Counted from the first letter of the stretch, positions 7,501 to 63,820 are shown. The stretch: DNA of 64,000 nt from Candidatus Woesearchaeota archaeon (GCA_035363095.1 DAOSEK010000001.1:17233-81232); one strand, 5' to 3'. The notes: generated from the sequence alone by a model not told the origin. Program-made: numbers and translations.

Positions 7501-7560
7501 GTGATATTTAAGCCAAAGCCAAATTTGGGTAATTTGGCATCTTAGCCCTTGATCCGGCAT
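4545..7560 (-). rRNA. rrl: 23S (large subunit) ribosomal RNA, boundaries approximate
   Basis: On the reverse complement there is a GC-rich, stop-codon-dense stretch of ~3 kb with conserved LSU segments. The 3' region reads ...GATGGAGTCGGTGTGTAAGTG... (compare E. coli GATAGGCCGGGTGTGTAAGCG). It lies downstream of tRNA-Ala in the archaeal 16S-tRNAAla-23S arrangement. The ORFs the track lists inside it are spurious. Confidence 0.85.
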
Positions 7561-7667
7561 AATAGATATGCCGAACTGCATTTTCAAATAAGCATCATCC
7601 AAAGTAATTCTGGACGATACCATATGATACATTGAAAACATAATTTGTTGAAAACATTAACTTTAAA

Positions 7668-7740
7668 TGGACCCGTCGGGATTCGAACCCGAGGCCTCCG
7701 CCTTGCAAGGGCGGCGCTCTACCAGCTGAGCTACAGGCCC
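7668..7740 (-). tRNA. tRNA-Ala (anticodon TGC) in the 16S-23S spacer
   Basis: The reverse complement reads GGGCCTGTAGCTCAGCTGGTAGAGCGCCGCCCTTGCAAGGCGGAGGCCTCGGGTTCGAATCCCGACGGGTCCA. It has a 7-bp acceptor stem with a G3-U70 pair, anticodon loop CTTGCAA and T-loop TTCGAAT. CCA is not encoded. Confidence 0.9.
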
Positions 7741-7920
7741 GTCTTTGCTTAGCGTATCAGCCTAATTGCTTAGTCCAAATCGCTAGGTAATTTGATTATG
7801 ATTTTTGTAAAATTTCTAAAAATATGAATAAAGGCTGCTTTAAGATTAATTTTATCATATTTTTCATCTAACTGATGATTGTATGAATTTTTTATTTTGC
7901 AAATTTAATTTTGAAAATAA

Positions 7921-9394
<1,474 letters not shown>

Positions 9395-23521: not shown

Positions 23522-24487
23522 CTATTTGTTTTGTTTGTGTTCGTATATTTGACTAAGAACATAAGCGGTGCTAGGCAACATTGCAAAATTGTTTATCAAT
23601 CTAGGAATAGAATTAAAATCGGCGGAAAGTATGACAGGATGTTCTTTTATACTTTCTAAATTGCCATAACATCTTTGAGCGATTTCTTTGAGACTAAGTG
23701 GTGTTATAATCTCAACTGATAAAAATGGAATTGTATCTCTATCATCAGTAAAATAAGATGACCCTATGTTAATTTCATTGGCGTTCAATTTATATTCTTC
23801 AACCATTTCAGTGAGTATTATATTTTTAAAATAATCAGTGATATTAAAGTCTTCTTTGTTATGATCTTTTGGGAATTCAGGGGTTCCTCCTGAAAAAGCA
23901 ATGCAATCTGCAGAAATACCTAATCCTTTTGCTCTTTTTACTAAACTTATCTTTTCTCCATTCTCTGGAAGCAACACAAATGCAAATGCAAAATATCTAG
24001 CTAAATCATCCAAACACAGATTATAAATAGGTAGTAGCTCTTTTATTGTTTTTCCAATAGGATACTCATCGGGCAATAATTCAGCAGGGATTGCCTTGGG
24101 TGTTGTTGCCTTGAAATCAAAGTATCCTCCTTTTTTTGTTGTCAACGGTAAACTTACACCGCCAGCGACCACCATTATTGAACCATTAAACATTCCTTTT
24201 TTTGATAAGGTTTCTTCTAATGCTTCTCGGTAAGGTTTTAAAGGATTGGGAACTTCATATTCGTTATCAAATACTTCTATTAAAAGCTCTTCAATATTCT
24301 TGAACACAGCAATTTTTTTCAGTGTCTCTTCGAGTTTAGAAATATTTAATCCATTAATTGCCCCATCTATAGAAGAACACATCTGCGATAGATCATTTGA
24401 GGAAATCTCAGGATCCAATGAACATAAATGAAGGGGAGAACTTCCATCACCTAAATCATAATTGAACTCAATAGTAGTATTTTTCAT
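23522..24487 (-). CDS. Hypothetical protein (321 aa)
   Basis: The ORF has sustained coding potential. No motif could be assigned confidently. Confidence 0.4.
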   Translation of the reverse strand: MKNTTIEFNYDLGDGSSPLHLCSLDPEISSNDLSQMCSSIDGAINGLNISKLEETLKKIAVFKNIEELLIEVFDNEYEVPNPLKPYREALEETLSKKGMFNGSIMVVAGGVSLPLTTKKGGYFDFKATTPKAIPAELLPDEYPIGKTIKELLPIYNLCLDDLARYFAFAFVLLPENGEKISLVKRAKGLGISADCIAFSGGTPEFPKDHNKEDFNITDYFKNIILTEMVEEYKLNANEINIGSSYFTDDRDTIPFLSVEIITPLSLKEIAQRCYGNLESIKEHPVILSADFNSIPRLINNFAMLPSTAYVLSQIYEHKQNK

Positions 24488-41439: not shown

Positions 41440-42490
41440 GTTATTATAGTATAAGACATAAATAACGCATACTTTATATAGTAATTGTACCATTATGTTC
41501 TTATGATAAACTTACAAACTCGTGAACTCTTTCTTAAGTGGAAAAAAGAAGGTAAAACGCAACAAAACATCGCTGAATTAGTGGGTTGTAATCAATCTGC
41601 GGTTAGTCGTTTATTAGTAAAGCACAAAAAGATGAGAAGTGTCAAGAACATTCCTCGTAGTGGTCGACCAACACCGCTAACAAAGGAAACACTTACTAAA
41701 CTCAAAAAAGAGTTTAAAAAACAGACAAGAGCGGCAAATAAAAAATTTTGTTCAATCGACACAAAACTATTTTCTCAATTAATTGAAAAAGAGGCGAATA
41801 AAAAATACACCACAAGACATATTGAAAGAATTATGCACAAATAGGGGGTTTTTTAATAACTAATCGTTCACAGCATATCAAAAATGATCCGAAAAAAATG
41901 CAGAATTTCGTGAAGATTTTAAAAAAAACAAAAAACAATATATTTGGGTCCTGAAATTATAGCAATAGACGAAGCAAGTTTTCAATTAACAACAACCTAC
42001 AAAAAAATTTTGTTTTCTCGTGGAGAAACACCGCTAGGTGCATTTTTTTGGAGCAACAAAAAACTTATAACTTTTGGTGCTTTAACAAGCGAACACAAAT
42101 TCTACTACGATTTTTATTACTTACAAAATAGTTTAACATTCAAACACTTTTTAAGAACCTTGTTTGAAAAATTAGACAAGAAAAAGAAATACTTTTTGAT
42201 CTTAGACAACGTAGGATTTCATAAAACGATATGCCTAAAAAATTTACTCTAAGAATACTCCCATCAAATAAGTGTCGAGCATATTCCACCTTTCTCTCCC
42301 GAACTAAATCCAATAGAAACATGCTGGAAAGTAACAAAAAATTATATGACACTATCCTAACATTTCAAAGACCTATACGAAATGCAAGAAAAGTTAGAAA
42401 ATTTTTGGTCAGAACAGATTTTTATGCAAGATTTTATGCGTTACTTATGTCGCCAACTACTATAATATTACTAAATAGAACAAATGTATT
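41440..42490 (+). mobile_element. Decayed IS630/Tc1-mariner-family insertion sequence, boundaries approximate
   Basis: ORF 41485-41844 is the HTH N-terminal part of an IS630 transposase (QQNIAELVGCNQSAVSRLL...RSGRPTPL). ORF 41944-42252 carries the DDE core (IDEASF...LDNVGFHKT). After an in-frame TAA at 42250 the same frame continues with the third acidic residue region (SVEHIPPFSPELNPIETCWKVTKNY), ending at 42357. The HTH and DDE parts lie in different frames. Confidence 0.75.
41944..42357 (+). pseudogene. IS630-family DDE transposase catalytic domain interrupted by an in-frame stop
   Basis: See the mobile_element entry. The D, D and E motifs are present but are split by a TAA at 42250-42252. 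The catalytic domain is separated by a frame change from the upstream HTH ORF. Confidence 0.65.
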
Positions 42491-42536
42491 TTACGATAAC
42501 GAAAAATTATTAAGCATAAAGGGCAAAGAAAAATAC

Positions 42537-43820
42537 ATGAAACGAACCTTGACAGTAGATGTTGCTGATAGAATTGGCGAGAAAGTTAAGATATGTGGCA
42601 GGGTATCTAATATAAGGATTTTCAAGGAAGTTGAATTTTACATTATTAGAGACAGGACAGGAGAGATTCAGGCTGTTTTTGAATCACAAAATGCTTTTAA
42701 AAAAGACGTTAAGAAGAATGCCATTGTTGAAGCCTATGGAGAGATAATTAGTGAAAATAGAGCTCCAGGGGGTTTTGAGCTAATAGTTGAAAGAATTGAT
42801 ATTTCATCTGAACCTCTGATTTCGCAACCTATTTCAACAGAGTCATGGTCAAAAACTAACATTGATTTAGAATTGGACAACAGAGCAATTTCACTTAGAA
42901 ATCCTGCAAATATAGATATTTTTGAACTTCAAAGTGCCATAGCAAAATACTTTAGAGATTTCTTTAGCAATCAAGATTTTGTAGAAGTATTTACACCAAA
43001 AATCGTAAGTAAAGGAGTCGAATCAGGTTCAAAAACGTTTAAATTAAATTATTTTGGACATCAAGTAGAACTAGCACAAAGTCCACAACTTTATAAGCAA
43101 ATCTTAGTAGGTACACAACTTGAAAGAGTGTTTGAAATTGGACATGCTTACAGAGCAGAATTGCATGATACTCCAAGGCATTTAAATGAGTTTATTAGCA
43201 TGGATGTGGAGATGTCTTACATTGATTGTTTAGACGATCTTTTAAAACTTGAAGAATCGTTTTTACATCAGCTCTTTTCAGAAATTAATATAAATTTCAA
43301 GGATATGTTAAATAGGAGAAAAATTGAACAACTGCCAGAAATAAAGAATATTCCAAGGGTGGCTTATGAAGAACTAAAAAAAATGTACAAAAAAATTAGG
43401 AAACATGAAGTTTCGATAAAGGATAGCAATTTAGAAAAATTTGCCTGTGACTATTTTATGGAAACAGAAAAGCTACCACTTGTGTTTATTACACATTTTC
43501 CATTAGTACAAAGACCATTTTACACAAAGCCGTCAGATGATGGAGTTTGTTCCGAGTCTTTTGATTTAATATATAGTGGATTAGAAATTACATCAGGTAG
43601 CATGAGAATTCATCAATATGACTTACTTAAAGAAAGCTTAAGAAAGTATAAGATTGATGAGGGAGGGATTAAATCTTATTTACAAGCATTTGAAGGTGGA
43701 ATGCCAAAACACGGTGGGTTTGCCATTGGACTTGAAAGATTGACATCACAAATTCTCAATCTGGATAATGTAAAACTAGCATCGCTATTTCCAAGAGATC
43801 GAAAGAGATACGTTCCCTGA
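42537..43820 (+). CDS. Class IIb aminoacyl-tRNA synthetase of the AspRS/AsnRS type (paralog 1)
   Basis: An N-terminal OB-fold anticodon-binding domain is present (VKICGRVSNIRIF...IIRDRTGEIQAVFE). Class II motifs are present (QSPQLYKQ, FEIGHAYRAELHDTPRHLNEFISMDVEM, GGFAIGLERL). The C-terminus is LFPRDRKRYVP. The track ORF start at 42231 reads through IS630 remnant sequence. The likely start is the ATG at 42537 (MKRTLTV). Confidence 0.7.
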   Translation: MKRTLTVDVADRIGEKVKICGRVSNIRIFKEVEFYIIRDRTGEIQAVFESQNAFKKDVKKNAIVEAYGEIISENRAPGGFELIVERIDISSEPLISQPISTESWSKTNIDLELDNRAISLRNPANIDIFELQSAIAKYFRDFFSNQDFVEVFTPKIVSKGVESGSKTFKLNYFGHQVELAQSPQLYKQILVGTQLERVFEIGHAYRAELHDTPRHLNEFISMDVEMSYIDCLDDLLKLEESFLHQLFSEININFKDMLNRRKIEQLPEIKNIPRVAYEELKKMYKKIRKHEVSIKDSNLEKFACDYFMETEKLPLVFITHFPLVQRPFYTKPSDDGVCSESFDLIYSGLEITSGSMRIHQYDLLKESLRKYKIDEGGIKSYLQAFEGGMPKHGGFAIGLERLTSQILNLDNVKLASLFPRDRKRYVP

Positions 43821-43826
43821 AAAATG

Positions 43827-43926
43827 AAAAATCTCAATATAAATATTCAATGTATTTCGCAAATAGTTGAGGTTAATTTTTTGTGAGTCCATCTCTTCTC
43901 ACGTTGGTATTAGGACCAAAGTATAT
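43827..43926 (+). repeat. Degenerate partial copy of repeat module A
   Basis: The copy reads gaaaaatctcaatataaatattcaatgtatttcgcaaatagttgaggttaatttt...ggaccaaagtatat. It is collinear with the module A 5' part and the accaaagtat segment. Confidence 0.5.
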
Positions 43927-43983
43927 AAAATAATTGATCCACAAAATCAAAATTAGATAAAGTAACTTGTGAGGTGTAACAGG

Positions 43984-45018
43984 ATGTATGGTAAAAAAAA
44001 GTCAGTGTTGATATTGAAAACAGGCGGTACTATTGCGATGGAGAAAAATAGTCTAGGGGTTTTAGCACCAACATCAAATGGTTTTATTGATAAAATACCT
44101 GGTATCGGAGATATAGCTAAAATTGATACGATAGACCTCATGAATATAGACAGCACTAATATGACTACAGAATATAGAACAAAAATAGCAAGTGAGATTT
44201 ATAAGAAATATTTTCACTACGATGGCTTTGTGATTACGCATGGAACGGATACAATGGTAGATACTGCTGCCGCGTTGAATTACATGTTGCAAGACATTGG
44301 CAAACCAATAGTTCTAACAGGTTCCCAAATTCCTATTTCTGCGGGTGCCAGTAGCGATGCAATGAGAAATATATATCTTGCAGTAAAGACAGCAACATCT
44401 GATTTTAGAGAAGTAGTTATTAGTTTTGGTAACTATGTTCTTAGAGGAAATCGAGCAATTAAAAAAAGTGAATGGGAATTTGATGCATTTGATACACCTC
44501 GGGCAGGATACCTTGCAGAAGCTGGAATTGAGTTTATATTATCTGACTCGCGAATACCTAGAAACAAAAAAACACCAAAACTATATGCCAATTTTGATTC
44601 TAAAGTAAATTATATATCTCAAACTTCAGGAGGCCAAAATTCTCCAATAAAGTATTATGCTGATAACCCCAGAGATATAAGTGGCTTAGTTATTGAGGGT
44701 TATGGTGCAGGAAATATTCAAACACACCTACTACCAAGCCTTCAGAGGATGACCAAAATGGGAAAAATAATAGTAGTTACAACAAATTGTCTAAATGGCA
44801 GAGCAGATTTAAACCTTTATGAAGTAGGAGATTTGGCGATGAAAAGTGGTATTTTATCTGGGAAAGACATGACATCACACACTGCAGTACAAAAGCTTAT
44901 GTGGGCGTTAGGAATTTCAAAAAACATAACAGACAAGTATCATAAAATACAAAAAGTCAAAGAACTCTTTTACAAACCTATTGGTAGAGACATAGAATTG
45001 TCGTATAGCCTACGCTAA
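43984..45018 (+). CDS. Type I L-asparaginase
   Basis: The N-terminal TGGTIAM threonine motif is present (VLILKTGGTIAMEKN). GTDTM and a second Thr/Lys region are present. The protein is ~345 aa. The GTG track start at 43969 was replaced by the ATG at 43984, which lies 8 nt after a gaggtg Shine-Dalgarno-like site. Confidence 0.75.
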   Translation: MYGKKKSVLILKTGGTIAMEKNSLGVLAPTSNGFIDKIPGIGDIAKIDTIDLMNIDSTNMTTEYRTKIASEIYKKYFHYDGFVITHGTDTMVDTAAALNYMLQDIGKPIVLTGSQIPISAGASSDAMRNIYLAVKTATSDFREVVISFGNYVLRGNRAIKKSEWEFDAFDTPRAGYLAEAGIEFILSDSRIPRNKKTPKLYANFDSKVNYISQTSGGQNSPIKYYADNPRDISGLVIEGYGAGNIQTHLLPSLQRMTKMGKIIVVTTNCLNGRADLNLYEVGDLAMKSGILSGKDMTSHTAVQKLMWALGISKNITDKYHKIQKVKELFYKPIGRDIELSYSLR

Positions 45019-45317
45019 AATTTGTCCAAAAATAGTAAAAAAAAGACTACTCAGAGAAGATTAAGCATGGCAAAAAAGAAATTATTATATTGTCATCACT
45101 TTGAAAATTGTTGATAGCAAATTTGAACCAACGGAAAATTTAAAATGTTTTTATGTGTGGCAATTAAGAAATATCTTTTATGTGAAGTATATTGCATATA
45201 GAGTTTTGTTTGGAGATCATAAATTGTTAATTATACCAAATAATTACATGTTACTTTTGAAAAGAATTTAACATTTTTTCAAAGGATAATTATTTAAATA
45301 GAATACGGGGATTTGCA

Positions 45318-46664
45318 ATGATTAAAACAAGATTTATTGAAGAGATTATTAAGGACAACAAAGAAGGTAATGAACAGGTTCACGGATGGATAATTGGAAA
45401 AAGAAAATCAAAAAACTATATTTTTTTAGATATTAAAGATAGTACTGGGGTTATTCAAGTTGTACTAAACAAAAAAAAAAATGTTAACGAAGATATTGAT
45501 TATATCAAAAATCTTAAATTAAACTCTGCAGTGAGTGTAACTGGGGCGTATAATAATTCTAGAAATCAGCCTGAGATTATTGCATCATTTTACAAAATAG
45601 AAAAAGAAGCAACATTAAATTTACAGCCAAATCCAAGTAATCCACTCTTAAATCCTTTTAATGAAAATTTTATTAAGCATTTAACTAAACATCCCACATT
45701 TTACATTTCTAATAGGAAGTTAGCTACCGTTTTAAAAATAAAATCAAGATTTAGACATAATCTGGCGAGTTGGTTTTGGAGCAATAAATATGTCCAAATG
45801 GAACCCCCCGAGTTCACAAATCAAACTCTTTATGATGATAATGGTGCTTTTTGGATTAACTTAAATGGTCAAAAGATATCATTATCTAGATGTGCAACAT
45901 TTCATTTAGAACCTGGGATAATAGCTTACGAAAAAGTATTTTGCATAACTGAAACTCACGCAAACGAAATGAGTAGGTCTAAGAGACATTTAGCAGAATT
46001 TACACATCTTAAAGCAGAACTCGCGTGGGCAAATTTAGAAGATTTGATGAGTATTGCTGGAAAGATGCTTTATGAAACAGTCAGACAAACAGTTAGTGAT
46101 TGTCAGAAAGAAATTGAAATATTGGGTTTAGGTAATATTATTGAAGATAAAATAAATAGACTTAATCCCAAGAACTACAAAATTATATCCTATGATGATG
46201 CAATTGAATTGATAAAGAAAAAAGGAAAATCATTTGACTACGGAAAAAGTTTGTCTAATAAAGATGAAGAAATCCTTACCTTGGCACACAATAATTCTTT
46301 GTTATGGATTAAATTTATTCCTTGTACTGCAGAAGGGTTTCCTTTTAAGCGCAAAAATGATACTCCTCATTTAACAATGGTAAGTGATTTAATTGCTCCT
46401 GGAGGATTTGGTGAGATTTTGGGTATTGCTGAAAAAATAACAGACTATGATGAATTACTATCTAGGATGAAAGAAAAAGGAAAAGATACGCCTGAACAAC
46501 TAGAAAGGTACAAAGATTATTTAGATTTGAGAAAATGTGGTTTACCAGAACATGGTGGAATTGGTATGGGAATTGAACGTGTGGTAAGATTTTTGCTAGA
46601 TTTAAAACATGTGAGATATACAAGACCTTTTCCTGTAATCCATAAAACAAAAATTAATTTCTAA
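45318..46664 (+). CDS. Divergent AspRS/AsnRS-like class II aminoacyl-tRNA synthetase paralog (paralog 3)
   Basis: An OB-fold-like N-terminus is present (VHGWIIGKRKSKNYIFLDIKDSTGVIQVV). A motif-2-like segment (FHLEPGIIAYEKVFCITETHANEMSRSKRHLAEFTHLKAEL) and motif 3 (GLPEHGGIGMGIERVVRFL) are present. It lacks the canonical FPRDxxRLxP ending and ends PFPVIHKTKINF. Confidence 0.6.
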   Translation: MIKTRFIEEIIKDNKEGNEQVHGWIIGKRKSKNYIFLDIKDSTGVIQVVLNKKKNVNEDIDYIKNLKLNSAVSVTGAYNNSRNQPEIIASFYKIEKEATLNLQPNPSNPLLNPFNENFIKHLTKHPTFYISNRKLATVLKIKSRFRHNLASWFWSNKYVQMEPPEFTNQTLYDDNGAFWINLNGQKISLSRCATFHLEPGIIAYEKVFCITETHANEMSRSKRHLAEFTHLKAELAWANLEDLMSIAGKMLYETVRQTVSDCQKEIEILGLGNIIEDKINRLNPKNYKIISYDDAIELIKKKGKSFDYGKSLSNKDEEILTLAHNNSLLWIKFIPCTAEGFPFKRKNDTPHLTMVSDLIAPGGFGEILGIAEKITDYDELLSRMKEKGKDTPEQLERYKDYLDLRKCGLPEHGGIGMGIERVVRFLLDLKHVRYTRPFPVIHKTKINF

Positions 46665-46737
46665 AGTTAAATATAAGTTGTTCTCTTCAAAAGAACAAAT
46701 CTTACAGGTTTTTGGTGTTAATAATGAACCTCTCCCC

Positions 46738-47170
46738 CTAAAAGAAGGAGTATCTGTTAAGCGATTGTTGGTTAATAACAGCTCGATTTGATTGTGCGAT
46801 ATAATTTTTTATTACCTCTGCGGTTACATTACCAACACTTCGAAAAAAATTTCTAGGACTCCAAAGATGCCCCTTCCTGAAATAACCTCTCAACCACTTG
46901 TGCTTTTGGAAAAGCTTATAAGAGCTGTATCCCTTTAAGAGGTTGAACGCCTTTGAAACGCTCATTGTTGGTGGCACTTCAACAAAAAAATGAACGTATC
47001 AGTCATAACTTAAAGTTCGTATAATTGCATCCCATAACGTGATATGGCCTCTTTTAATATTACTTCACAGTCAGCCTTTACCCATGGGAATTTGAAACAA
47101 TCCCATGCATATTTTGGTTTCCATACCAGATGAAAACTGTTTTGTCCAACGCTGTGTGCGAAATTTGTTA
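46738..47170 (-). pseudogene. tnpA: IS200/IS605-family Y1 (HUH) transposase tnpA, disrupted by a stop plus frameshift
   Basis: Minus-strand translation gives the N-terminal part MEITNFAHSVGQNSFHLVWKPKY...PWVKADCEVILKEAISRYGMQLYEL*. After a one-base frame change it gives YVHFFVEVPPTMSVSKAFNLLKGYSSYKLF...WLRGYFRKGHLWSPRNFFRSVGNVTAEVIKNYIAQ. Together these match the IS200 TnpA consensus (HxH...PKY...DHVHLLV.IPP..SVS...LKG.SS...W...YF..SVG). Confidence 0.75.
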
Positions 47171-47290
47171 TTTCCATTTAGCTCATCTCCGAAGAGCAAA
47201 GCTCACGCTAACTTCGGGTGGTTAGTGCGTGGCGCAAAAAATTTTCGCTCGCCACGTATTTTTTTATTTTAGAAAAGAAAAAGATTTGTG
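47170..47290. mobile_element. GC-rich hairpin-bearing IS200/IS605 end region
   Basis: Two perfect palindromes are present: ccgaag...cttcgg and cgtggcgcaaaaaattttcgctcgccacg. They lie adjacent to the tnpA pseudogene. The local composition contrasts with the AT-rich surroundings. Confidence 0.5.
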
Positions 47291-47589
47291 TAAAAAAGAC
47301 AAGCCTTCAGTCTAAAGACTGAGGTATTTAATACGTTTAACTAGAGAATTATCTTATAGCTCAAATTTTTTTGAACTAAAATTATGAAACCCTATAGGAA
47401 TCCTTGTGCACTTTATCAAATGCCTCACAGGTCAGTTTTTTCATTTATTCAGTTGAAGTAACATATGAACCTGCCCAAAACTATTTTATTGCTTAAGAGA
47501 AATTTAAATTTTTAGAATCTCAACGTATCGAACTAATAGATAATTTTATAAATGAGTCTTTTTTTCTTTTTGGAAGTATTGATATTTTT

Positions 47590-47662
47590 GGCTCCGTAGC
47601 TCAGTAGGTGGAGCGCACGACTGTTAATCGTGAGGTCGGCAGTTCGAGGCTGCCCGGAGCCG
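47590..47662 (+). tRNA. tRNA-Asn (anticodon GTT)
   Basis: The sequence is GGCTCCGTAGCTCAGTAGGTGGAGCGCACGACTGTTAATCGTGAGGTCGGCAGTTCGAGGCTGCCCGGAGCCG. The anticodon stem CACGA/TCGTG encloses loop CTGTTAA. A T-tract follows. Confidence 0.85.
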
Positions 47663-47702
47663 CTTTTTTACTTGTCATGTGTAGATAAGGAGTGTTATAT
47701 GA

Positions 47703-48995
47703 ATGAAAATTTCCGAACTAAAAGAAGGAATGGAGAATATTGAAATTTATGCTTCAGTTCAAGATACAAAAGCAATTGGGAAGATAATTTTTTTAAAGTT
47801 AAGAGATGACAGCGGGCTTGTCCAACTCACTTGCATTGAAGGAAGTGATATACCTTTTGATGGCATTAAATCTATAAAAAAGGAGTTTTATGTAAGAGTA
47901 AAAGGGGATGTAAGAGCTTCTAAAAATGAAGGGAGTATTGAAATCATTCCAAAACATATTATAGTTGTTTCTGAAAGTTCAGGTGATTTACCATTCAAGA
48001 TAAATAATGAATTTGAGAAGGTTTCTCAGGATAAAAGGTTAGATTGGCGCTCTTTGGATTTGCGAAGCTTAAGATTACAATCTATTTTCAAGATACAATC
48101 AGCGATTGTGGAAGGTATTACACAAGAGTTATTTTCTAAAGGATTTCGAATTTCATTTACGCCTTGTTTACTGAATACTGCATCAGAATCAGGTTCTGAG
48201 GTGTTCCCAGTCATATATTTTGACAAAGAAGCATTTCTCAGACAAGACCCACAGCTACATAGGCAACTTACTATTGCTGGTGGAGCCAAAAAGATATTTG
48301 ATTTGGGTCCAGCTTGGAGAGCAGAAAAATCACATACAAAGTACCATCTATGTGAGCACAGGGTTTGTGCGGTAGAATGCGCAGATATTGAAGATGAACG
48401 TGACATTATGAGAGTCGAAGAGTCTTTGATAGTCTCAGCAATTAATAAAGTTAATCAAACTTGCAAAGATGAATTAGAAAGACTAAATACAAGCATTTGT
48501 GTTCCTAAAACACCCTTTCCAGAGTTGACTTTCCCTGAAATATTCTCGATTTTGAAAGAAAGTGGAAAGGAAACTTTCGACAGCGAAGATTTGGATAAAG
48601 AAGCAGAGCAAATTTTAGCTAAATATGTTAAGGATAAATATGACTCAGATTTTTATTTTGTTAACAGATTTGCTTTCTCGATAAAGCCATTTTATGTAAT
48701 GAGAATAGATGATAATCCTAAACGGGCAAGATCTGTGGATTTGTATTATAAGGATCTAGAGTTGAGTTCTGGTGGACAACGAGAGCACAGATATGAGTAT
48801 TTGATGAGAAACATTGAAGAAAAGGGTGTTAAAATCTCTGAGGTTGAATGGTTTGTGAAATTCTTTAAGTATGGCGTTGCGCCTCATGGGGGATTTGCTT
48901 TAGGAATAGAAAGATTAACACTCGCACTTACTAAAAGTGAAAATATTAGAGATTGTGTACTGTTTCCAAGAGATCCAGAGAGGTTAAATCCATGA
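47703..48995 (+). CDS. aspS: Aspartyl-tRNA synthetase, archaeal type (paralog 2; likely non-discriminating given the downstream gatCAB)
   Basis: An OB-fold N-terminus is present (IGKIIFLKLRDDSGLVQLTC). The class II core and the ending APHGGFALGIERLTLALT...VLFPRDPERLNP are present. The Shine-Dalgarno site aaggagtg lies 9 nt upstream. The stop overlaps the gatC start (ATGA). Confidence 0.8.
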   Translation: MKISELKEGMENIEIYASVQDTKAIGKIIFLKLRDDSGLVQLTCIEGSDIPFDGIKSIKKEFYVRVKGDVRASKNEGSIEIIPKHIIVVSESSGDLPFKINNEFEKVSQDKRLDWRSLDLRSLRLQSIFKIQSAIVEGITQELFSKGFRISFTPCLLNTASESGSEVFPVIYFDKEAFLRQDPQLHRQLTIAGGAKKIFDLGPAWRAEKSHTKYHLCEHRVCAVECADIEDERDIMRVEESLIVSAINKVNQTCKDELERLNTSICVPKTPFPELTFPEIFSILKESGKETFDSEDLDKEAEQILAKYVKDKYDSDFYFVNRFAFSIKPFYVMRIDDNPKRARSVDLYYKDLELSSGGQREHRYEYLMRNIEEKGVKISEVEWFVKFFKYGVAPHGGFALGIERLTLALTKSENIRDCVLFPRDPERLNP

Positions 48996-49273
48996 GAATA
49001 GATGAACAAACTATTGAAATTTTGTCCAATATTTCTAAATTGAAACTAAGTGCTGATGAACAGAATCATATGATAGTTGATCTTAAAGGCATTCTTAATG
49101 CTTTTATAGCAATACAAGAAATTGATGTTCATAATTTGGAAAGTGCCATATTGCCCATTCACTTTGAGAACTGTATTAGGAATGATGAAGCCAGGGTTTT
49201 TGAAGAAGATGCTACATCAACAGCAATATATATTATCGATAATTTTATAATCGGTCCGAGGACTTTAGAATGA
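48992..49273 (+). CDS. gatC: Asp/Glu-tRNA amidotransferase subunit C
   Basis: The ~93 aa ORF is coupled by ATGA overlaps to aspS upstream and gatA downstream. Its size and position are typical for GatC. The track start (48953) lies inside aspS. The ATG at 48992 (MRIDEQTIE) was chosen. Confidence 0.65.
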   Translation: MRIDEQTIEILSNISKLKLSADEQNHMIVDLKGILNAFIAIQEIDVHNLESAILPIHFENCIRNDEARVFEEDATSTAIYIIDNFIIGPRTLE

Positions 49274-50697
49274 TTATAGAACACATAAATAACGTGAATT
49301 GTGAGAAAATAGACTTAACATCGTTTGCTAAATCTGTTATTGATGAGATAAAGGATATAAACTCGAAGATTTACTGTTTCAATTGTGTTTGCGAGGATTC
49401 TGCACTAAAGGATGTCCAGATAGTGAGTAAACGCAAAAAACTGGAAAAAGGAACCCTTGCAGGGTTAATAATTTCTGTAAAAGATAACATTTGCGTTAAA
49501 GATGTTGAGACTACAGCAGGTTCAAAAATCCTTTCAGGATATAAGCCAGTATTCAATGCAACGGTTGTTGAAAAGCTCAAAATGGAAGGAGCGATAATAG
49601 TAGGAAAAACTTCTATGGACGAGTTTGGATTTGGTGGCTTTAATATTAATACAGGAGTAGATTTTAAGGTCCCTTTAAATCCAATAGACCTCAAAAGAAG
49701 TACAGGAGGTTCTAGTGGAGGAAGTGGAGCAGTAACAAAAGTAGTTGATTTTGCTCATGTTTCGATTGCTGAAAGCACAGGTGGTTCTATTGAATGTCCA
49801 GCATCATTTTGTGGGGATGTTGGTTTTTGTCCAACATATGGTAGGATAAGCAGGTTTGGTCTTATTTCATATGCCAATTCATTAGACAAAATTGGTATAT
49901 TGTCAAAAGATGTGGAGGATATAATCCCTGTTTTTAATGCAGTTGCAGGTAAGGACAATAAAGATCCTACTTGCATAACTGATACAATTAAACTAAAAAA
50001 AGCAATAGCAAAAAAAAAATTTAAAATTGGTATAATTAGTGAGTCATTTGATGACTATATTGCCGATTATATTAAAGAACATCTAAGGGTACTAATAAAT
50101 CTAATCAAGAAGAAGCATGAAATTTTTGAAGTTTCTTTACCTTTCACTTTTAAGTACGGAGTGCCAACATATTACATAATTGCTACAAGCGAAGCATCAA
50201 CAAATCTTTCCAAATTCTGTGGGTTAAGATATGGAATTCAGGCAGATCCAAAGACTAAGACATTTTCCAATTTTTTTTCAGAAATAAGGTCTGAGAATTT
50301 GGGAAAAGAAGCAAAACGTAGGATTTTACTTGGAACCTATGCTAGAATGGCAGGTTATAGAGATGAATATTATCTCAAAGCAACAAAAGTCAGGCGACTT
50401 ATAATAGATGAATATAAAGAGGCTTTCAAAAAGTATGATGTTTTAATTTCTCCAACCACCCCAATGTGTGCACCATTATTTTCAGAAATATCGAAGATGG
50501 ATGTTGTGGAACAATATTTGTTTGATCAATTAACAGTTGGTCCAAATCTCGCAGGTTTACCTCATGCATCAATCCCTTTTGCAAAATTCGGTGAAATGCC
50601 TTTAGGACTAATGGTTGTTTCAGATCACTATAAAGAACAGGAACTCATTGATTTTCTGTTTGAAATTGAGAAGGTTGGTAAGGAGAATGGAATTTAA
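49270..50697 (+). CDS. gatA: Asp/Glu-tRNA amidotransferase subunit A (amidase family)
   Basis: The amidase signature is GGSSGGSGAVTKVVDFAHVSIAESTGGSIECPASFCG (GGSSGG...TGGS(I/V)R-type). The protein is 475 aa. Confidence 0.85.
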   Translation: MIIEHINNVNCEKIDLTSFAKSVIDEIKDINSKIYCFNCVCEDSALKDVQIVSKRKKLEKGTLAGLIISVKDNICVKDVETTAGSKILSGYKPVFNATVVEKLKMEGAIIVGKTSMDEFGFGGFNINTGVDFKVPLNPIDLKRSTGGSSGGSGAVTKVVDFAHVSIAESTGGSIECPASFCGDVGFCPTYGRISRFGLISYANSLDKIGILSKDVEDIIPVFNAVAGKDNKDPTCITDTIKLKKAIAKKKFKIGIISESFDDYIADYIKEHLRVLINLIKKKHEIFEVSLPFTFKYGVPTYYIIATSEASTNLSKFCGLRYGIQADPKTKTFSNFFSEIRSENLGKEAKRRILLGTYARMAGYRDEYYLKATKVRRLIIDEYKEAFKKYDVLISPTTPMCAPLFSEISKMDVVEQYLFDQLTVGPNLAGLPHASIPFAKFGEMPLGLMVVSDHYKEQELIDFLFEIEKVGKENGI

Positions 50698-52105
50698 TCA
50701 AGAGGTAATTATAGGTTTGGAAACACATATTGAAGTAGATACATTATCTAAATTATTTTGCTGTTGCCCACGTACTGGGATAGACACTCCTAATTCCAGA
50801 GTATGTCCTATTTGTCTTGGTCATCCTGGAGCGAGACCTTTTTTAAATGGCAAAGTCTTGGCAGCTGCAGTCAAATTGGCTTTAGCGATTGATGGTCAGA
50901 TTACAGAAAAAGTTGTGTTTTCCAGAAAAAACTACTTTTATCCTGATATGGCAAAGAATTTTCAAATAACTCAATTTGAAAGTCCACTGTCACAGAAGGG
51001 GTCTGTGAAATTAAATTCCGGTAAGTTAGTTAAAATAAGAAGACTTCATATTGAGGAAGACCCTGCGTCTTTAGTCTATCCGAAAACTATGAGAGATTCT
51101 CAATATGTTTTAATTGACTATAACAGATCAGGTATCCCACTTATTGAGTTGGTAACTGAACCAAGTATTAATTCTCCAAGAGAAGCAAGAGAATATATGA
51201 ACAAGCTCATGTCCATTTTAAGTTACCTTAAGATTTTTGATGTGAATTCCTGTGTCATCAAAAGTGATGCTAATATATCTATAAGAGATAGTGATTATAC
51301 ACGTGTTGAAATCAAGAATATAAGCGGAATTAAGGAGATTGAAAAAGCCCTTTCTTACGAGCTGATGAGACAGCGATCTTTGATACGCAGAGGAATTAAG
51401 ATTGTTAAAGAAACTAGAGGCTGGAACAAAGTAGGAAAAACGACTTTTAGCCAGCGAACGAAGGAAAGCGAAGAAGATTATGGGTATATTTCAGAGCCTG
51501 ATCTTCCCGAAATAGTTATCACACCAGAATATATACGGAAGAATAAGGATGAAATTCCTGAATTACCAGCACAAAAGCAAGTAAGATTTGTTGAAAAGTA
51601 TAAACTTAATGAGGATGATTCATTCGTATTGACTAAGGAACCTGAGATTGCAGATTTATTTGAGAACGTCGCAAAGGTGATTGATTCAAATATCGCTGCT
51701 AACTGGATAAGAGGTGAGATTTTGCGCGTTCTGAATTATAACAAAAAAAGATTGAATGATTCTTACTTATCTGCTGAGAGAATAATAGATTTACTGAAGT
51801 TATTATGTGAAAATAAGATCTCTAAAAATATGGCTCAAAATTTTTTGGAAAGAATGATTACTGAGAATTTTTCTCTCAGAGATTACATTTTGAACAATAA
51901 TATTTCGCAGATTTCGGATGACAAAATATTGACAGATATTGCAAAAAAGGTGCTAAATGAGGAAAAAATTGCATTAGAAGATTATTTGAGTGGTAAGGAA
52001 AAAGCGCTTGATTATATCATTGGAAAATGTATGGCACTTTCAAAGAGTAAGGCCGACCCAATAAAGATCAACAAGATACTATTGACTCTAATAAGAACGC
52101 GTTAA
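50687..52105 (+). CDS. gatB: Asp/Glu-tRNA amidotransferase subunit B
   Basis: The motifs are GLETHIE, CPICLGHPGA, RKNYFYPD and HIEEDPAS. A C-terminal YqeY-like tail is present. The start was set at the ATG at 50687 (MEFNQEV), which overlaps the gatA stop. The track ORF begins upstream, inside gatA. Confidence 0.85.
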   Translation: MEFNQEVIIGLETHIEVDTLSKLFCCCPRTGIDTPNSRVCPICLGHPGARPFLNGKVLAAAVKLALAIDGQITEKVVFSRKNYFYPDMAKNFQITQFESPLSQKGSVKLNSGKLVKIRRLHIEEDPASLVYPKTMRDSQYVLIDYNRSGIPLIELVTEPSINSPREAREYMNKLMSILSYLKIFDVNSCVIKSDANISIRDSDYTRVEIKNISGIKEIEKALSYELMRQRSLIRRGIKIVKETRGWNKVGKTTFSQRTKESEEDYGYISEPDLPEIVITPEYIRKNKDEIPELPAQKQVRFVEKYKLNEDDSFVLTKEPEIADLFENVAKVIDSNIAANWIRGEILRVLNYNKKRLNDSYLSAERIIDLLKLLCENKISKNMAQNFLERMITENFSLRDYILNNNISQISDDKILTDIAKKVLNEEKIALEDYLSGKEKALDYIIGKCMALSKSKADPIKINKILLTLIRTR

Positions 52106-52210
52106 CTGCTAAGATTCTAATAGGACATATAATAAATACTCTATCTTGGATGAGTTAGTAAACAAATTTCTATTGTTGATTAATTGTATTTTGAGTGTTT
52201 TTTTAGTTCT

Positions 52211-53575
52211 CTATGCGAAAAGATAATTTTCTATTTCCCAATCAGTAACTATTAGCTGATTGTAGTTTTGCCATTCCTTTTCTTTTATATCAATGTATCG
52301 TTTAAAATAGCTTTCTCCAAGCATGTTTAACATTAGTTGACTTTGCTTAAAGTAGGTAATTGATTCAAATAGCGATGTTGGAAGAGTAGTTATTCCTTTT
52401 TTTGATAAATCTAATGCGTTTTCTTTGAAGACATTAGTGTTAGTATCTTTCATAATGTCTAGTTTTTTATCAATTCCTTCCAAACCTACATGCAAAAGAG
52501 CTGCAAAAGCAAGATAGGGAGAACATAAACCATCAGGACTTCTTATTTCAGCATGTGTATGATGATTAGCAACTATTGAAGATATTGGCACTCTGATTAA
52601 GGCGGAACGATTGCCTACGCCCCAACAAATATATACTGGTGCTTCGTGATCAGGAACAAGCCTTTTGTAAGAGTTGATACAAGGATTTAATATCAATGCC
52701 ATTTCTTTAGCAAAGAAAAGTTGAGCCTGAATAAAATTCCTTGCTAGATTCGAAAGATGTAATTGATCAATAGGATTGTAAAACAAAGAGTTTCCTGACA
52801 AATCTTCTAAACTGAAGTGTATATGCATTCCACTGCCTGCACATTTAGAGAATGGTTTTGGCATAAAAGTTGCCAACAGACTATGTTTTTGTGCTACAGT
52901 TCTAATAACTTCTTTCATTATCATTATTCTATCCGCAGTTATCAAAGGGTCACCATATTCTAAACCTATTTCATGTTGCCCCGTTCCTACCTCGTGGTGT
53001 GCCTTATCAACAGGCAGTCCAATAGATTTTAAATTATTTAGTATTTCCAAACGAATTTCATTTGACTTGTCTTTAACTTGATGATCTAAGTATGAACCAT
53101 TGTAATCGAAGGAAGGTGGAACAATCTTATCTCCCTTTTTTTCTACAAGAAAAAATTCAATTTCTGGTCCTACTTTCAAATTGAACCCTTTTACTCTTGC
53201 TTTATCTAGGGTTTGTTTAAGAATAGTTCGAGGTGAACAGCTATGAAGTAGGTTTTCTTTGCTATACACATCACAAAATACTCTCTTAACTAGAGCACCC
53301 GATTCATTTTGTAGAATAAAGTTGTTATTAAGGTTAGGTTTCAGGTACATGTCACTATCATATATCTCTTTAAATCCTTTCACTGAAGAACCATCAAACC
53401 ATATTCCTGAGTTTTTAGATTTTTCAAAGGAATCTTTTGTTAGTTGTATAACTTTAGGATTACCCAGAATATCACAAAATTCTAGTTCAACAAATTGAAA
53501 TCCATTATTAAATTCTTCATTAGTCTCATTGCCATAATTATTGATTAATTCTTCTTTATTGCTTATTTCATTCAT
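52211..53575 (-). CDS. glnA: Glutamine synthetase type I
   Basis: The ATP-binding signature is KPFSKCAGSGMHIHFSL (GSGMHxHxS). The protein is 454 aa. It is divergently adjacent to an Lrp-family regulator. Confidence 0.85.
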   Translation of the reverse strand: MNEISNKEELINNYGNETNEEFNNGFQFVELEFCDILGNPKVIQLTKDSFEKSKNSGIWFDGSSVKGFKEIYDSDMYLKPNLNNNFILQNESGALVKRVFCDVYSKENLLHSCSPRTILKQTLDKARVKGFNLKVGPEIEFFLVEKKGDKIVPPSFDYNGSYLDHQVKDKSNEIRLEILNNLKSIGLPVDKAHHEVGTGQHEIGLEYGDPLITADRIMIMKEVIRTVAQKHSLLATFMPKPFSKCAGSGMHIHFSLEDLSGNSLFYNPIDQLHLSNLARNFIQAQLFFAKEMALILNPCINSYKRLVPDHEAPVYICWGVGNRSALIRVPISSIVANHHTHAEIRSPDGLCSPYLAFAALLHVGLEGIDKKLDIMKDTNTNVFKENALDLSKKGITTLPTSLFESITYFKQSQLMLNMLGESYFKRYIDIKEKEWQNYNQLIVTDWEIENYLFA

Positions 53576-53710
53576 TTTTCACACCTTTGGTAACTTAAAA
53601 AGATAATAACCGATACTTTATTAATATTTTGTCTAAAAAAGTTAACAAATTACAGCTTATAACCGAAAAAAATATATATTTGATAGCTTAATCATATATT
53701 TTGAGTAATA

Positions 53711-54175
53711 ATGAAAGCAAATGAAAAGTGGGAACTAGATGAATTAGATCGGAAAATAATAAGATATCTTCTGCAAAATGCAAAGGCATCTTTTAGAAAG
53801 ATTTCAAGAGCTTTAAGGATAACCTCAGTTACAGCTCTTAATAGAATAAAAAAACTTGAAGAAAAAGGAATAATTATAGGCTATTCAGTTAAGCTTGATA
53901 TGGAAAAAGCAGGTTTTGATGTTAATGCAATAATAAAACTTCGCATTTCAAAAGGAAAGTTATTTGAAGTTGAAAAAAAGATTGCGATACATAAAAGAGT
54001 TGTTGCTGTATATGATGTCACTGGTGATTTTGATTGCATTATAATAGGTAAGTTTAAATCCAGAAAGGAACTGGATGTGTTTCTAAAAGATACTCAAACC
54101 TATGACTTTATCGAGAGAACTGAAACTATTCTCATTCTTAATGTAATAAAAGAGGATAATATTGCCGATATATAA
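53711..54175 (+). CDS. Lrp/AsnC-family transcriptional regulator
   Basis: An N-terminal HTH (LDELDRKIIRYLLQNAKASFRKISRALRITSVTALNRIKKLEEKGII) is followed by a RAM/ACT-like effector domain. Confidence 0.8.
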   Translation: MKANEKWELDELDRKIIRYLLQNAKASFRKISRALRITSVTALNRIKKLEEKGIIIGYSVKLDMEKAGFDVNAIIKLRISKGKLFEVEKKIAIHKRVVAVYDVTGDFDCIIIGKFKSRKELDVFLKDTQTYDFIERTETILILNVIKEDNIADI

Positions 54176-54377
54176 ACCTTACAAATGTTTGATAATCTGC
54201 TTGATTGGCTTGGTTCTCATATCAATGTAATGCCAGAATGATCTATGAATTTCTTATTAAAGAGTTGATTTTAAGATTGAAAACTTCTTACCGAACAGCA
54301 AGTTAATAAATGATTAGCAAAGTTTCTGAATACCTTTCAATAAGAAATATACGACTATTAAAAAAATAAAGAAAGAT

Positions 54378-61890: not shown

Positions 61891-63303
61891 TCACGCGAAC
61901 GTGTTCTTTTTAAAACACTCATCGTATGCATTTTTAAGATCTAAAATTCTCTTAGAAATAATGGCATTATTGCCCGTCTCTTGAATATAAAAGGCACTAT
62001 ATTGTTGCACAAGCCCACTCAATCTTCTCATCAAATCGGTATCATTTTTTTCAAGTGATTCTAATTTGACAAGCAAATTACTACAAAAAGGTATAAATTT
62101 TTTAATTGCGTCTGGCGTTACCTTTTTGGTTAAAATTTCTTTGATATTTGTGATTATTGAATCAATCATATTGATTTCGTCATTTGTTGCTTTAGAACTT
62201 CTTAGGGTCAATTCTTTAGTTAATCTAGACAACTGTTCTTGGTTTTTGTCAAAGGAAGTGTCTTTATCAATCATCTCTTTTAATTCATTGATTACATCGC
62301 TAAATGACCTGTTTTTCAAGGTAGATATAGGTGTTTTCATAGCACTAGCAACGTTTAAATTAAGCGTTCCCGCCAGTTCTATTAAATACTTTTCGAAACC
62401 ATTAATATCTGCCTTATAATCTTCGATTAAGTCATTTATTTTTATTAAGCCAGTTAAAGTATTTGTAATATCGGCATCTATCATTTTTTCGTTTTGAAAA
62501 TAAGCTTTTAGTTCTTCGGCTCTTTTAAGCATAGCATCCAAGGCATCTCTCGTACGAAAACTATTGACACTTGAATTCCTTATCACTTCCGAAAGTAGTG
62601 ATCTTAGAATCTTAATTAATTCTTCTTCCTTATACCCTGTTCTTGCTTTGGTACCAAGGATATTGTTTATACTTTGCAGATAAATACCTTCGTTTGTGGT
62701 GTCACTCATCTCCTTACCCCAGTGCTTACGAAGTTTGGTTATTCCTGAACTTCCGATATGCCCAAGGCCTGCTGCGCCCGTTCTAAAGGGATCGCCAAAG
62801 GCGGATTCACCAAACAACCAATTTGTGCCCCATACGATTATTACTATTACAAGCATCCAAAACCAAAATATCCCTGCAGTTGTGCCAAAGGCAACAAGTT
62901 CAACTACTGAAGGAACTAAAGGGGTTACAAACATTGCAAGCAAGGTAAAACCTATTGTAAAAACGGTCTTTGAGGTTTCAACACCTGATAAACCTCTTTC
63001 ACGTGCCTTAGAAAATGGAGGGACTATTCCAAAAATAATATCAAGTATAGGATATACTATCATAAACACCAAAACCAAAAGCCACCAAGGTGCAAGGACT
63101 GTAGTAATCTTACCTTGTATATAAATTGGAAACGGAACCTGAACCTTGAATGCCGAAGCTAGTTGAGAATTGAATTTTTGGCTTCCAAAGCCAAAGGTTG
63201 TAGTAGTCTGAAGATTGTCCCAACCACTTGTTTGAGAAAGTGCAAAATAGGGTAGCATTAAAGCTAAAAGAACTAAAAGTATGCATAAATACCTAAACTT
63301 CAT
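61891..63303 (-). CDS. Hypothetical membrane protein with a signal peptide, a conserved PWWLL TM module and a long C-terminal coiled-coil domain
   Basis: The N-terminus reads MKFRYLCILLVLLALMLPYFALSQTSGW...VPFPIYIQG...APWWLLVLVFMIVYPILDIIFGIVPPFSK. It is paralogous to the 63362-63820 protein. Confidence 0.55.
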   Translation of the reverse strand: MKFRYLCILLVLLALMLPYFALSQTSGWDNLQTTTTFGFGSQKFNSQLASAFKVQVPFPIYIQGKITTVLAPWWLLVLVFMIVYPILDIIFGIVPPFSKARERGLSGVETSKTVFTIGFTLLAMFVTPLVPSVVELVAFGTTAGIFWFWMLVIVIIVWGTNWLFGESAFGDPFRTGAAGLGHIGSSGITKLRKHWGKEMSDTTNEGIYLQSINNILGTKARTGYKEEELIKILRSLLSEVIRNSSVNSFRTRDALDAMLKRAEELKAYFQNEKMIDADITNTLTGLIKINDLIEDYKADINGFEKYLIELAGTLNLNVASAMKTPISTLKNRSFSDVINELKEMIDKDTSFDKNQEQLSRLTKELTLRSSKATNDEINMIDSIITNIKEILTKKVTPDAIKKFIPFCSNLLVKLESLEKNDTDLMRRLSGLVQQYSAFYIQETGNNAIISKRILDLKNAYDECFKKNTFA

Positions 63304-63361: not shown

Positions 63362-63820
63362 TTAAAACCTATATCTATGTTCCCTTTTATCAAACATGGT
63401 CATCATAAGCCAAAGGAATATAACAACAATCAGTATATAAATCCACCATTTAACAATAAGCACACCTGTTGATATTGCATGCAAAAGATTTGGTATTAAA
63501 GGTGAAGCGAACATAGAAAGCAACGTAAGACCAAGTGAAAAAACAATCTTTGAATTATCATTTGGGCTTTTTGAAAAAGGCGGGACCATGCCAACTAAGA
63601 TTTCAAGCAAAGGAAAAACCACCATAAACACAAGTAACAACAGCCACCAAGGAGTTCCTAGTAAAACAAGCCTTCCAGAGCTATAAACTGGGAAGGGCAC
63701 TGACACAGAAATAAGGCCTTTAGAATCCGAAGAAATCCCATTAAAACCACCGGTTTGTGCTACACCTAAGGATATTACTACAATAAAAAAAATAGTAGCA
63801 AGGATTATTAACCTTTTCAT
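63362..63820 (-). CDS. Hypothetical small membrane protein, a paralog of the N-terminal module of the 61891-63303 protein
   Basis: It shares the ...QTGGF...VPFPVYSSG...TPWWLLLLVFMVVFPLLEILVGMVPPFSK block. An aaggagg Shine-Dalgarno site lies ~8 nt upstream. Confidence 0.55.
   Translation of the reverse strand: MKRLIILATIFFIVVISLGVAQTGGFNGISSDSKGLISVSVPFPVYSSGRLVLLGTPWWLLLLVFMVVFPLLEILVGMVPPFSKSPNDNSKIVFSLGLTLLSMFASPLIPNLLHAISTGVLIVKWWIYILIVVIFLWLMMTMFDKREHRYRF

Follow-up and report, generated by a model that had tools for sequence, protein, structure and literature searches.

A candidate dual-route locus for asparaginyl-tRNA supply in a Woesearchaeota archaeon, with a gene from an AsnRS-like clade that lacks the motif-2 arginine

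The joint occurrence of asparaginyl-tRNA synthetase (AsnRS), a second aspartyl-tRNA synthetase (AspRS) and the amidotransferase GatCAB is known from Thermus, Deinococcus and Clostridia (PMC2330236, PMC4206432). The system of Thermus thermophilus and Deinococcus radiodurans comprises a discriminating AspRS1, a nondiscriminating (ND) enzyme of archaeal type called ND-AspRS2, AsnRS and GatCAB, and serves tRNA-dependent asparagine biosynthesis; in Clostridium acetobutylicum, according to work by Saad et al. (2012) that PMC4206432 cites, an ND-AspRS–GatCAB operon controlled by an Asn-specific T-box is present beside AsnRS. Here we describe a locus of about 13 kb with a comparable set of genes in a Candidatus Woesearchaeota archaeon. 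It lies in a stretch of 64,000 nucleotides (GCA_035363095.1 DAOSEK010000001.1:17233-81232), which was analysed as a whole and is called the window below; positions are counted from its first letter unless the handle of another locus (L followed by a number) precedes them.

The locus resembles the Thermus and Deinococcus systems in its two AspRS enzymes of different ancestry, one of them apparently from the other domain, its AsnRS-type enzyme and its GatCAB, but the presumed transfer is reversed, the archaeon holding the copy from a bacterial clade; in addition, the genes are clustered within 13 kb with those for tRNA-Asn, an asparaginase and glutamine synthetase (GS), and the AsnRS-type protein has no motif-2 arginine. 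Bacterial loci containing relatives of this AsnRS-type gene are like C. acetobutylicum in having a T-box with an AAC specifier before AspRS/GatCAB and the AsnRS-type gene outside the regulon, whereas the window is archaeal and without a T-box, and its AsnRS-type gene belongs to a divergent clade, here termed R-type, and is paired with an asparaginase-like gene. Our preferred reading, to which we assign a probability of roughly 0.55, is that this is a consolidated dual-route locus for the supply of Asn- and Asp-tRNA, which would be of mixed ancestry, would have been moved or imported recently, and would still encode an active, rewired AsnRS; included in that reading, and in its probability, is the view that the block is too recent to have gained the strong strand skew of the chromosome. 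A first-pass annotation of the DNA had listed these genes in order, and both the list and the order were borne out by ORF listing and by Pfam, NCBIfam, tRNA and Rfam scans (Table 1). The gene identities also uphold its statement that a full indirect route (AspRS, GatCAB, tRNA-Asn and GS) stands beside extra Asx-type synthetases and an asparaginase.

The R-type protein has the full architecture of an AsnRS, with a PF01336 OB anticodon-binding domain and a PF00152 class II catalytic domain, and the best structural match of its AlphaFold2 model (pLDDT 87.7) is the AsnRS of Pyrococcus horikoshii (PDB 1X54), with TM-scores of 0.86/0.89. It scores 246.7 against the asnS model NF003037 (cutoff 414) and 219.7 against TIGR00457 (cutoff 342.6), while the canonical AsnRS encoded beside the R-type gene in L083, the closest relative with usable context, passes these models with 464.5 and 412. 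Residue alignment to the P. horikoshii enzyme located three changes in the active site: the FRAE of motif 2 is replaced by HANE, with Arg211 becoming Ala; upstream of motif 2, LSQS is replaced by LSRC, with Gln becoming Arg191; and the C-terminal FPR becomes FPV. The two ‘arginine tweezer’ residues, which include the motif-2 Arg, have been called invariant in class II synthetases (PMC5919687). The pocket is also altered, with AEK for the SQR of canonical AsnRS and C/T for S/Q. We compared 123 AsnRS-type sequences, 54 of them R-type, and found the covariation to be perfect: all 54 R-type sequences have Arg191 and lack both the motif-2 Arg and the FPR Arg, and all 69 others have Gln, Arg and Arg at the same three sites.

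The rest of the active site is strongly conserved. The decapeptide LSRCATFHLE is invariant across the R-type clade, as are E217, R223, D357, E366 and the motif-3 residue R421 in an alignment of 52 R-type sequences, in which H224 is nearly so, and the OB-domain residues R29, F36 and D41 are invariant as well. Because these active-site and OB residues are invariant or nearly invariant in the clade, the R-type gene is not decaying. HisZ, a synthetase-fold protein that has no adenylation activity, has lost its catalytic residues wholesale (PMC9437257); the R-type protein is like it in lacking a class-defining catalytic residue, but its clade keeps the other active-site residues that were checked and gains an Arg nearby. 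In the AlphaFold2 model, the two strands of one beta-alpha-beta unit are followed, two to three residues after their C-terminal ends, by positions 191 and 215 respectively, a topology compatible with Arg191 standing in spatially for the lost motif-2 Arg. Like AsnA and the archaeal AS-AR, the R-type protein is a paralog of the class IIb catalytic core tied to Asn metabolism; AS-A and AS-AR have no anticodon-binding domain (PMC9437257), whereas the R-type protein retains a conserved OB domain, and it reaches only 105-111 bits against the NCBIfam models for asparagine synthetase A (cutoffs 309-368).

In a neighbour-joining tree, the R-type clade is monophyletic, with an archaeal and a bacterial subclade, and is nested in a wider divergent group of ‘AEK-type’ AsnRS sequences from Candidate Phyla Radiation bacteria, Firmicutes and archaea. 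A sister group of AEK-type sequences from Firmicutes, annotated as ‘asparagine--tRNA ligase’ (P0071-P0087, for example P0075 from Oscillospiraceae), reads FRGA, FRGK or FRGM in motif 2, the Glu being lost and the Arg kept, and this change is apparently a second, independent remodelling of an AsnRS active site. The suggestion that one of the three synthetases might be a true AsnRS is supported in that one paralog is AsnRS-like, with a complete AsnRS architecture and fold, and the suggestion of a non-canonical one is supported in sequence, by the lost motif-2 Arg; an AsnRS-like paralog would make the direct and indirect routes redundant. In the literature we found no description of an AsnRS-type clade without the motif-2 Arg, nor of a covarying Arg swap, and a 2022 review of synthetase paralogs names only AS-A/AS-AR and ErdS for this family.

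About 30 R-type loci were gathered by genome and metagenome scans and by exact-protein look-ups. Wherever a non-window locus offered 600 nt or more of sequence downstream of the R-type gene, a partner gene lies within 400 nt on that side (21/21), and no such partner is present in the Q-type sister loci inspected. In metagenome-assembled genomes of gut and rumen Firmicutes the partner, found in 14/14 loci and in three further partial ones, is a divergent protein of the asparaginase/GatD superfamily (333-377 aa) with the TGGT and HGTDT motifs intact and scores of 65-93 bits against both the GatD and the asparaginase I models. This subfamily (L006, L007, L008, L010, L011, L091-L093 and L098-L104) was met solely beside R-type genes. 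AspRS and GatCAB typically come next after this pair, AspRS and/or GatAB being seen in about ten loci, and in eight Firmicutes loci a T-box with an AAC (Asn) specifier lies between the asparaginase-like gene and AspRS/GatCAB; none was found directly upstream of an R-type gene in bacteria. GS stands immediately upstream in L093, and a tRNA-Asn gene 137 nt upstream in L011, although of about 23 loci only L011 and the window show adjacency to tRNA-Asn, which is thus weak as a general trait of R-type genes. In two gut Firmicutes loci (L091:8498-9949 and L092:8454-9887) the R-type gene directly follows a gene encoding HD/TGS domains, that of L091 having a RelA_SpoT domain as well, a position at which many Firmicutes presumably have hisS-aspS.

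The clustering of synthetases had been singled out as unusual, but it is not a one-off, for an asparaginase-like gene comes after the R-type gene in all 14 bacterial loci with downstream sequence, and many of these go on to AspRS and/or GatCAB; because of this recurrence, we attribute the clustering to function and not to insertion sequence (IS) activity only. The window set of R-type gene, asparaginase, AspRS, GatCAB, GS and tRNA-Asn is, as judged from these gene families, a reproduction of the bacterial module with partly non-orthologous parts. A 50-kb metagenome contig (L111:1304-10895) carries two asparaginase/GatD-like and two GatB-family matches, AspRS, a Q-type (arginine-retaining) AsnRS-like gene of the AEK type and gatA together, so that this AsnRS lineage may have been linked to AspRS and Gat genes before the R-type change arose. 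We found no published description of an R-type gene paired with asparaginase-like or PP-loop/HIT genes, or of an operon joining AsnRS, asparaginase and GatCAB.

The archaeal loci are organized differently. In Woesearchaeota, the R-type gene is followed by a gene for a PP-loop protein in seven loci (and three partial ones), usually with a HIT hydrolase gene after it, and it usually lies within a few kb of, and often adjacent to, a canonical AsnRS gene whose product passes the asnS cutoffs. In this conserved cassette (L083:3931-5389; also L005, L085, L086, L095, L096 and L110) the PP-loop partner, of 320 aa, has an SGGKDS motif and a C-terminal CxxC, and searches of Pfam, NCBIfam and the PDB gave it only sub-threshold matches of the QueC, NadE, LarE and TtuA type. 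The window genome is the sole exception to the rule of a downstream partner: the order canonical AsnRS/R-type/PP-loop/HIT of its closest relatives is replaced by AspRS-A/asparaginase/R-type, with the type I asparaginase 300 nt upstream of the R-type gene, and no homologue of the PP-loop protein, the HIT protein or canonical AsnRS occurs anywhere in the 64 kb. The position of PP-loop/HIT in the relatives is occupied in the window by an IS200 pseudogene, and in L083 an IS200-like fragment directly follows HIT.

So regular a neighbour allows a different explanation, which we hold to be possible but doubtful, namely that the R-type protein is not an AsnRS but the tRNA-Asn-binding, ATP-using subunit of a two-component enzyme completed by the product of the adjacent gene. 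R-type proteins would then tentatively form a new cross-domain family of synthetase paralogs with rewired arginine tweezers, working only with a GatD/asparaginase-like or a PP-loop (usually plus HIT) neighbour, and such enzymes might engage in tRNA-Asn-linked formation or handling of Asn that coexists with, and is distinct from, AsnRS and GatCAB; one possibility is an alternative amidation or Asn-forming machine that uses ammonia from the partner. The invariable downstream gene, and its absence from the Q-type sister loci, speak for this explanation, as do the weak and roughly equal likeness of the bacterial partners to GatD and asparaginase I with their motifs kept, and the fact that both types of partner come from families whose members act on amide nitrogen or activate carboxylates by adenylation. 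A conventional route (canonical AsnRS or AspRS/GatCAB) is also found nearby in many R-type loci, and the coordinated triple change in the active site suggests a changed chemistry. The window genome would then show a secondary condition, its PP-loop/HIT partner having been lost through an IS200 event, with a standard asparaginase now beside the gene instead; the IS200 relic exactly at the relatives’ partner position, and the fragment after HIT in L083, fit such an event. There is a likeness to GatDE, in which an asparaginase-superfamily protein is encoded beside a tRNA-binding, ATP-using partner, and the Firmicutes protein aligns end to end with the asparaginase domain of GatD, but here the partner is AsnRS-like rather than a kinase of the GatB/GatE family, and the GatD scores are 72-80 bits against cutoffs of 310-324. 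Against a two-component enzyme, GatCAB in the same loci already amidates on the tRNA, so that a second amidotransferase would be redundant; the R-type gene of the window is intact, and 99-100% identical across at least five contigs, without a dedicated partner; and the T-box layout of the bacterial loci fits a direct AsnRS outside the starvation regulon.

Resistant duplicates of synthetases are known to occur near genes for resistance or biosynthesis, and by analogy the R-type protein could be an inhibitor-resistant paralog of AsnRS, its pocket remodelled against a natural mimic of the aminoacyl-adenylate and its neighbours detoxifying the compound. The conserved HIT gene (HinT-like, 42.7 bits) beside the archaeal R-type genes, near canonical AsnRS, would suit this idea, as would the patchy spread of the clade over both domains and over dense anaerobic communities (digesters, gut and rumen). 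We nevertheless consider it improbable: the idea rests on analogy only, no biosynthetic, transporter or toxin-like genes were seen in any R-type locus, and the bacterial contexts are those of housekeeping genes, with a gene of the RelA/SpoT family upstream in L091, HD/TGS in L092 and AspRS-GatCAB downstream.

To return to the preferred reading, its mixed ancestry is argued from the two AspRS enzymes. AspRS-A is of the archaeal type, with no GAD insertion (no PF02938 match); its best solved structure is T. thermophilus ND-AspRS2 (1N9W), and the named proteins closest to it, with 41-46% identity, are archaeal-type enzymes of bacteria (Spirochaetes, Firmicutes and WOR-3) annotated as ‘aspartate--tRNA(Asn) ligases’. 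By these relationships it belongs to the bacterial ND-AspRS2 clade and is not native. For AspRS-B, many Woesearchaeota have an AspRS of 52-60% identity, and in three relatives aspS lies 0.8-5.4 kb upstream of the same gatCAB trio, with different flanks and without any IS; AspRS-B and gatCAB are thus, on this comparison, native to Woesearchaeota and of vertical ancestry. Rather than having been acquired as one foreign block, as first proposed, the locus is a mosaic.

The first-pass annotation had also taken the gatCAB-coupled enzyme, AspRS-B, as the ND one, and this is called into question by two positions corresponding to W26 and K85 of the AspRS from Thermococcus kodakarensis, which we take to be the switch between discriminating (D) and ND enzymes, a His at W26 or a Pro at K85 being ND-like. 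At these positions AspRS-A has Ser and the ND-like Pro (RAPGG), while AspRS-B has neither signature but Gln and Glu, its loop being shorter by one residue; most of its Woesearchaeota relatives have His at the W26 position. On these two positions, AspRS-A would be the better ND candidate, and AspRS-B, without the His/Pro signatures of its relatives, may have specialised on tRNA-Asp. This suggests a division of labour as in Thermus and Deinococcus, with the captured AspRS-A serving tRNA-Asn.

The remaining components of the indirect route are in order. The tRNA-Asn has G1-C72, G73 and a variable loop of five nucleotides, AGGUC (positions 44-48), and such a 5-nt loop is needed by archaeal GatCAB (PMC2330236). 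The three GatCAB subunits are encoded in one operon with overlapping frames; the coupling by ATGA that had been claimed throughout holds for AspRS-B/gatC and gatC/gatA, but gatA and gatB have an 11-nt overlap instead. The asparaginase keeps both catalytic motifs (TGGTIA and HGTDT), has PDB entries named L-asparaginase as its best matches, and scores 257.8 bits against TIGR00519, marginally under the cutoff of 260.5. We considered whether it might be an orthologue of the bacterial partner proteins and rejected this, the identity being 24-29% over partial lengths; it is a standard type I enzyme.

From homology and gene context we propose the following scheme. AspRS would charge tRNA-Asn with Asp, and GatCAB would amidate this to Asn-tRNA(Asn), with glutamine probably supplied by the adjacent GS under the control of the Lrp/AsnC regulator. 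The R-type protein would still form adenylates and bind tRNA-Asn, most likely acting as an AsnRS that salvages free Asn; Arg191, at the end of the neighbouring strand, would take over the function of the lost motif-2 Arg. The asparaginase may turn surplus Asn into Asp and ammonia for the other branch. The Firmicutes layout would correspond to a direct route with an inducible indirect one, the T-box switching on AspRS/GatCAB under Asn starvation.

The block had been described as IS-flanked and compositionally distinct, and neither description holds in full. An IS630 relic, with terminal inverted repeats of 31 nt that are 77% complementary (41441-41471 and 42435-42465), forms the left edge of the skew-anomalous block; the IS200/IS605 relic is internal, and its three-frame translation shows a frameshift and a stop codon together with loss of the HUH motif. 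The right edge was searched and has no IS, repeat or integrase, there are no direct or att-type repeats flanking the block, and the window contains no further IS copies. A composite transposon was rejected, mobile-element genes or repeats not being present at both ends, and nothing shows movement of the block as a single composite unit. As to composition, GC content is uniform across the window, at about 0.32, and a GC-content island was rejected on this ground. The dominant feature in the GC profile of the window is a complete archaeal rRNA operon at 4528-9393 on the minus strand (16S, tRNA-Ala(TGC) spacer and 23S), with a much higher GC of 0.42-0.54. The strand-symmetrised tetranucleotide signature of the block was compared with those of the other 12.8-kb segments of the window, and its distance of 0.0147 lies inside their range of 0.0098-0.0191; it is not an outlier, and a foreign signature was likewise rejected.

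What distinguishes the block is its strand asymmetry, and the contrast seen by eye between A-rich coding strands inside it and G/T-rich ones outside is real in this sense. The GC/AT skew at four-fold sites is 0.004/+0.03 in the block (1192 sites in eleven genes, 41485-54175) against 0.50/-0.22 in the rest of the window (4409 sites), with Mann–Whitney p = 1.8e-5 for GC and p = 0.006 for AT, and a sliding run of 11 genes has its skew minimum exactly at the block, starting at 41485. Outside the block, third-codon and four-fold sites have a strong excess of G over C and of T over A on the plus strand, whatever the orientation of the genes; the GS gene is within the zero-skew block and the Lrp/AsnC gene is its last. 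In L083, the asnS cluster likewise has zero skew amid strongly skewed neighbours. The simplest reading is that the block recently arrived at, or was rearranged into, its present position, from a source resembling the host in oligonucleotide signature, for instance another Woesearchaeote or a different part of the same genome. Other window genes with near-zero or reversed skew lie at 23522-24487, 61891-63303 and 63362-63820, and may represent additional insertion events or, towards the right end, a switch of skew.

That there was no transfer at all, the genes being a vertical, functional cluster, the skew plateau an old local inversion or a replication feature and the IS relics incidental, seems to us unlikely. 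It would accommodate the native AspRS-B and gatCAB, linked in three relatives without IS, the host-like GC and tetranucleotide signature, and the lack of flanking repeats and integrase. It is harder to reconcile with AspRS-A, which has no archaeal relative closer than the bacterial ND-AspRS2 enzymes, with an R-type clade split between a few Woesearchaeota and Firmicutes, or with a gene order wholly unlike that of the closest relatives; moreover, the skew minimum coincides with the exact edges of the block, IS630 relic included, and the same zero-skew island recurs at the asnS cluster of L083.

Table 1. Features of the locus, in window coordinates, with the matches on which each assignment is based.
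Feature	Position	Strand	Basis
IS630-family relic	41441..42465	+	HTH and DDE_3 fragments (Pfam/NCBIfam); in-frame stops (three-frame translation)
AspRS-A, archaeal-type	42537..43820	+	NF003483, 457 bits (cutoff 353)
Type I L-asparaginase, cytosolic	43984..45018	+	PF00710 and PF17763; TIGR00519
R-type AsnRS-like gene	45318..46664	+	asnS models, sub-cutoff; protein HOI18283.1
IS200/IS605 tnpA (Y1 transposase) pseudogene	~46738..47180	-	PF01797 and NF033573 on the C-terminal half
tRNA-Asn (GTT)	47590..47663	+	ARAGORN, Rfam
AspRS-B	47703..48995	+	NF003483, 438 bits; ATGA overlap with gatC
gatC	48992..49273	+	PF02686; TIGR00135, 43.2 bits (slightly under cutoff of 47.1)
gatA, amidase/glutaminase subunit	49270..50697	+	TIGR00132, 453.5 bits (slightly under cutoff of 481.1)
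gatB	50687..52105	+	NF004012, 528.9 bits (passes cutoff of 338)
Glutamine synthetase (GS) family	52211..53575	-	TIGR00653, 396.9 bits; convergent with gatB
Lrp/AsnC-family regulator	53711..54175	+	NF041396 and AsnC models; divergent from GS

The start of AspRS-A is the ATG at 42537, where its homologues and the alignment begin, and not 42231; the first 100 or so codons of the ORF from 42231 are read-through of the IS630 relic (42231-42536). In public gene calls the protein has 529 or 499 aa, the surplus N-terminus being translated relic. Public records name HOI18282 as asparaginase, HOI18283 as ‘asparagine--tRNA ligase’, HOI18285 as AspRS and HOI18289 as GS, and the identical locus is present in at least five independent metagenome contigs. 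AspRS-A and AspRS-B are 29% identical, and the AsnRS-like protein is 21-22% identical to each; because the three synthetases are only 21-29% identical to one another they are not assembly duplicates, a possibility that the first-pass annotation had raised. Within the window we found no second copy of any gene of the block and no AsnA or AsnB, and in the block itself no T-box or other Rfam leader at E <= 1 besides the tRNA.

Several points weigh against the preferred reading. The R-type protein is far under the curated asnS cutoffs, the Arg that it has lost is the one counted as invariant in class II synthetases (PMC5919687), and its pocket differs from that of canonical AsnRS. An obligatory neighbour, present at every one of the 21 loci counted, is not expected of a plain AsnRS, and the salvage model leaves the archaeal PP-loop/HIT partner unexplained; the R-type gene is near a canonical AsnRS gene in the closest archaeal relatives, and it is therefore, this suggests, not simply a housekeeping enzyme. 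The status of asnA, asnB and canonical asnS is that of the 64-kb window, and the D/ND roles of the two AspRS enzymes are predictions from signature positions of mutagenesis work with the T. kodakarensis enzyme. Finally, zero skew could also be the outcome of an old inversion in place, by now half ameliorated.

The redundant combination of AsnRS, second AspRS and GatCAB, and the control of the indirect route by a T-box, are already known, and the genes of the window are routinely named in public annotation. That direct and indirect routes to Asn-tRNA(Asn) coexist has long been puzzling for accounts of how the genetic-code machinery evolved, and this locus would place the whole toolkit in one recently moved block of a DPANN archaeon, with one component apparently captured from bacteria. 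It is the R-type family, more than the island hypothesis, that gives the locus its interest, because the clade breaks the rule of an ‘invariant’ motif-2 Arg through a perfectly covarying residue swap. An active R-type protein would amount to an experiment of nature, in which a catalytic residue has been moved within an ancient active site; should the protein not be an AsnRS, common bacteria of the human gut and the rumen would possess a new enzyme system derived from a synthetase.

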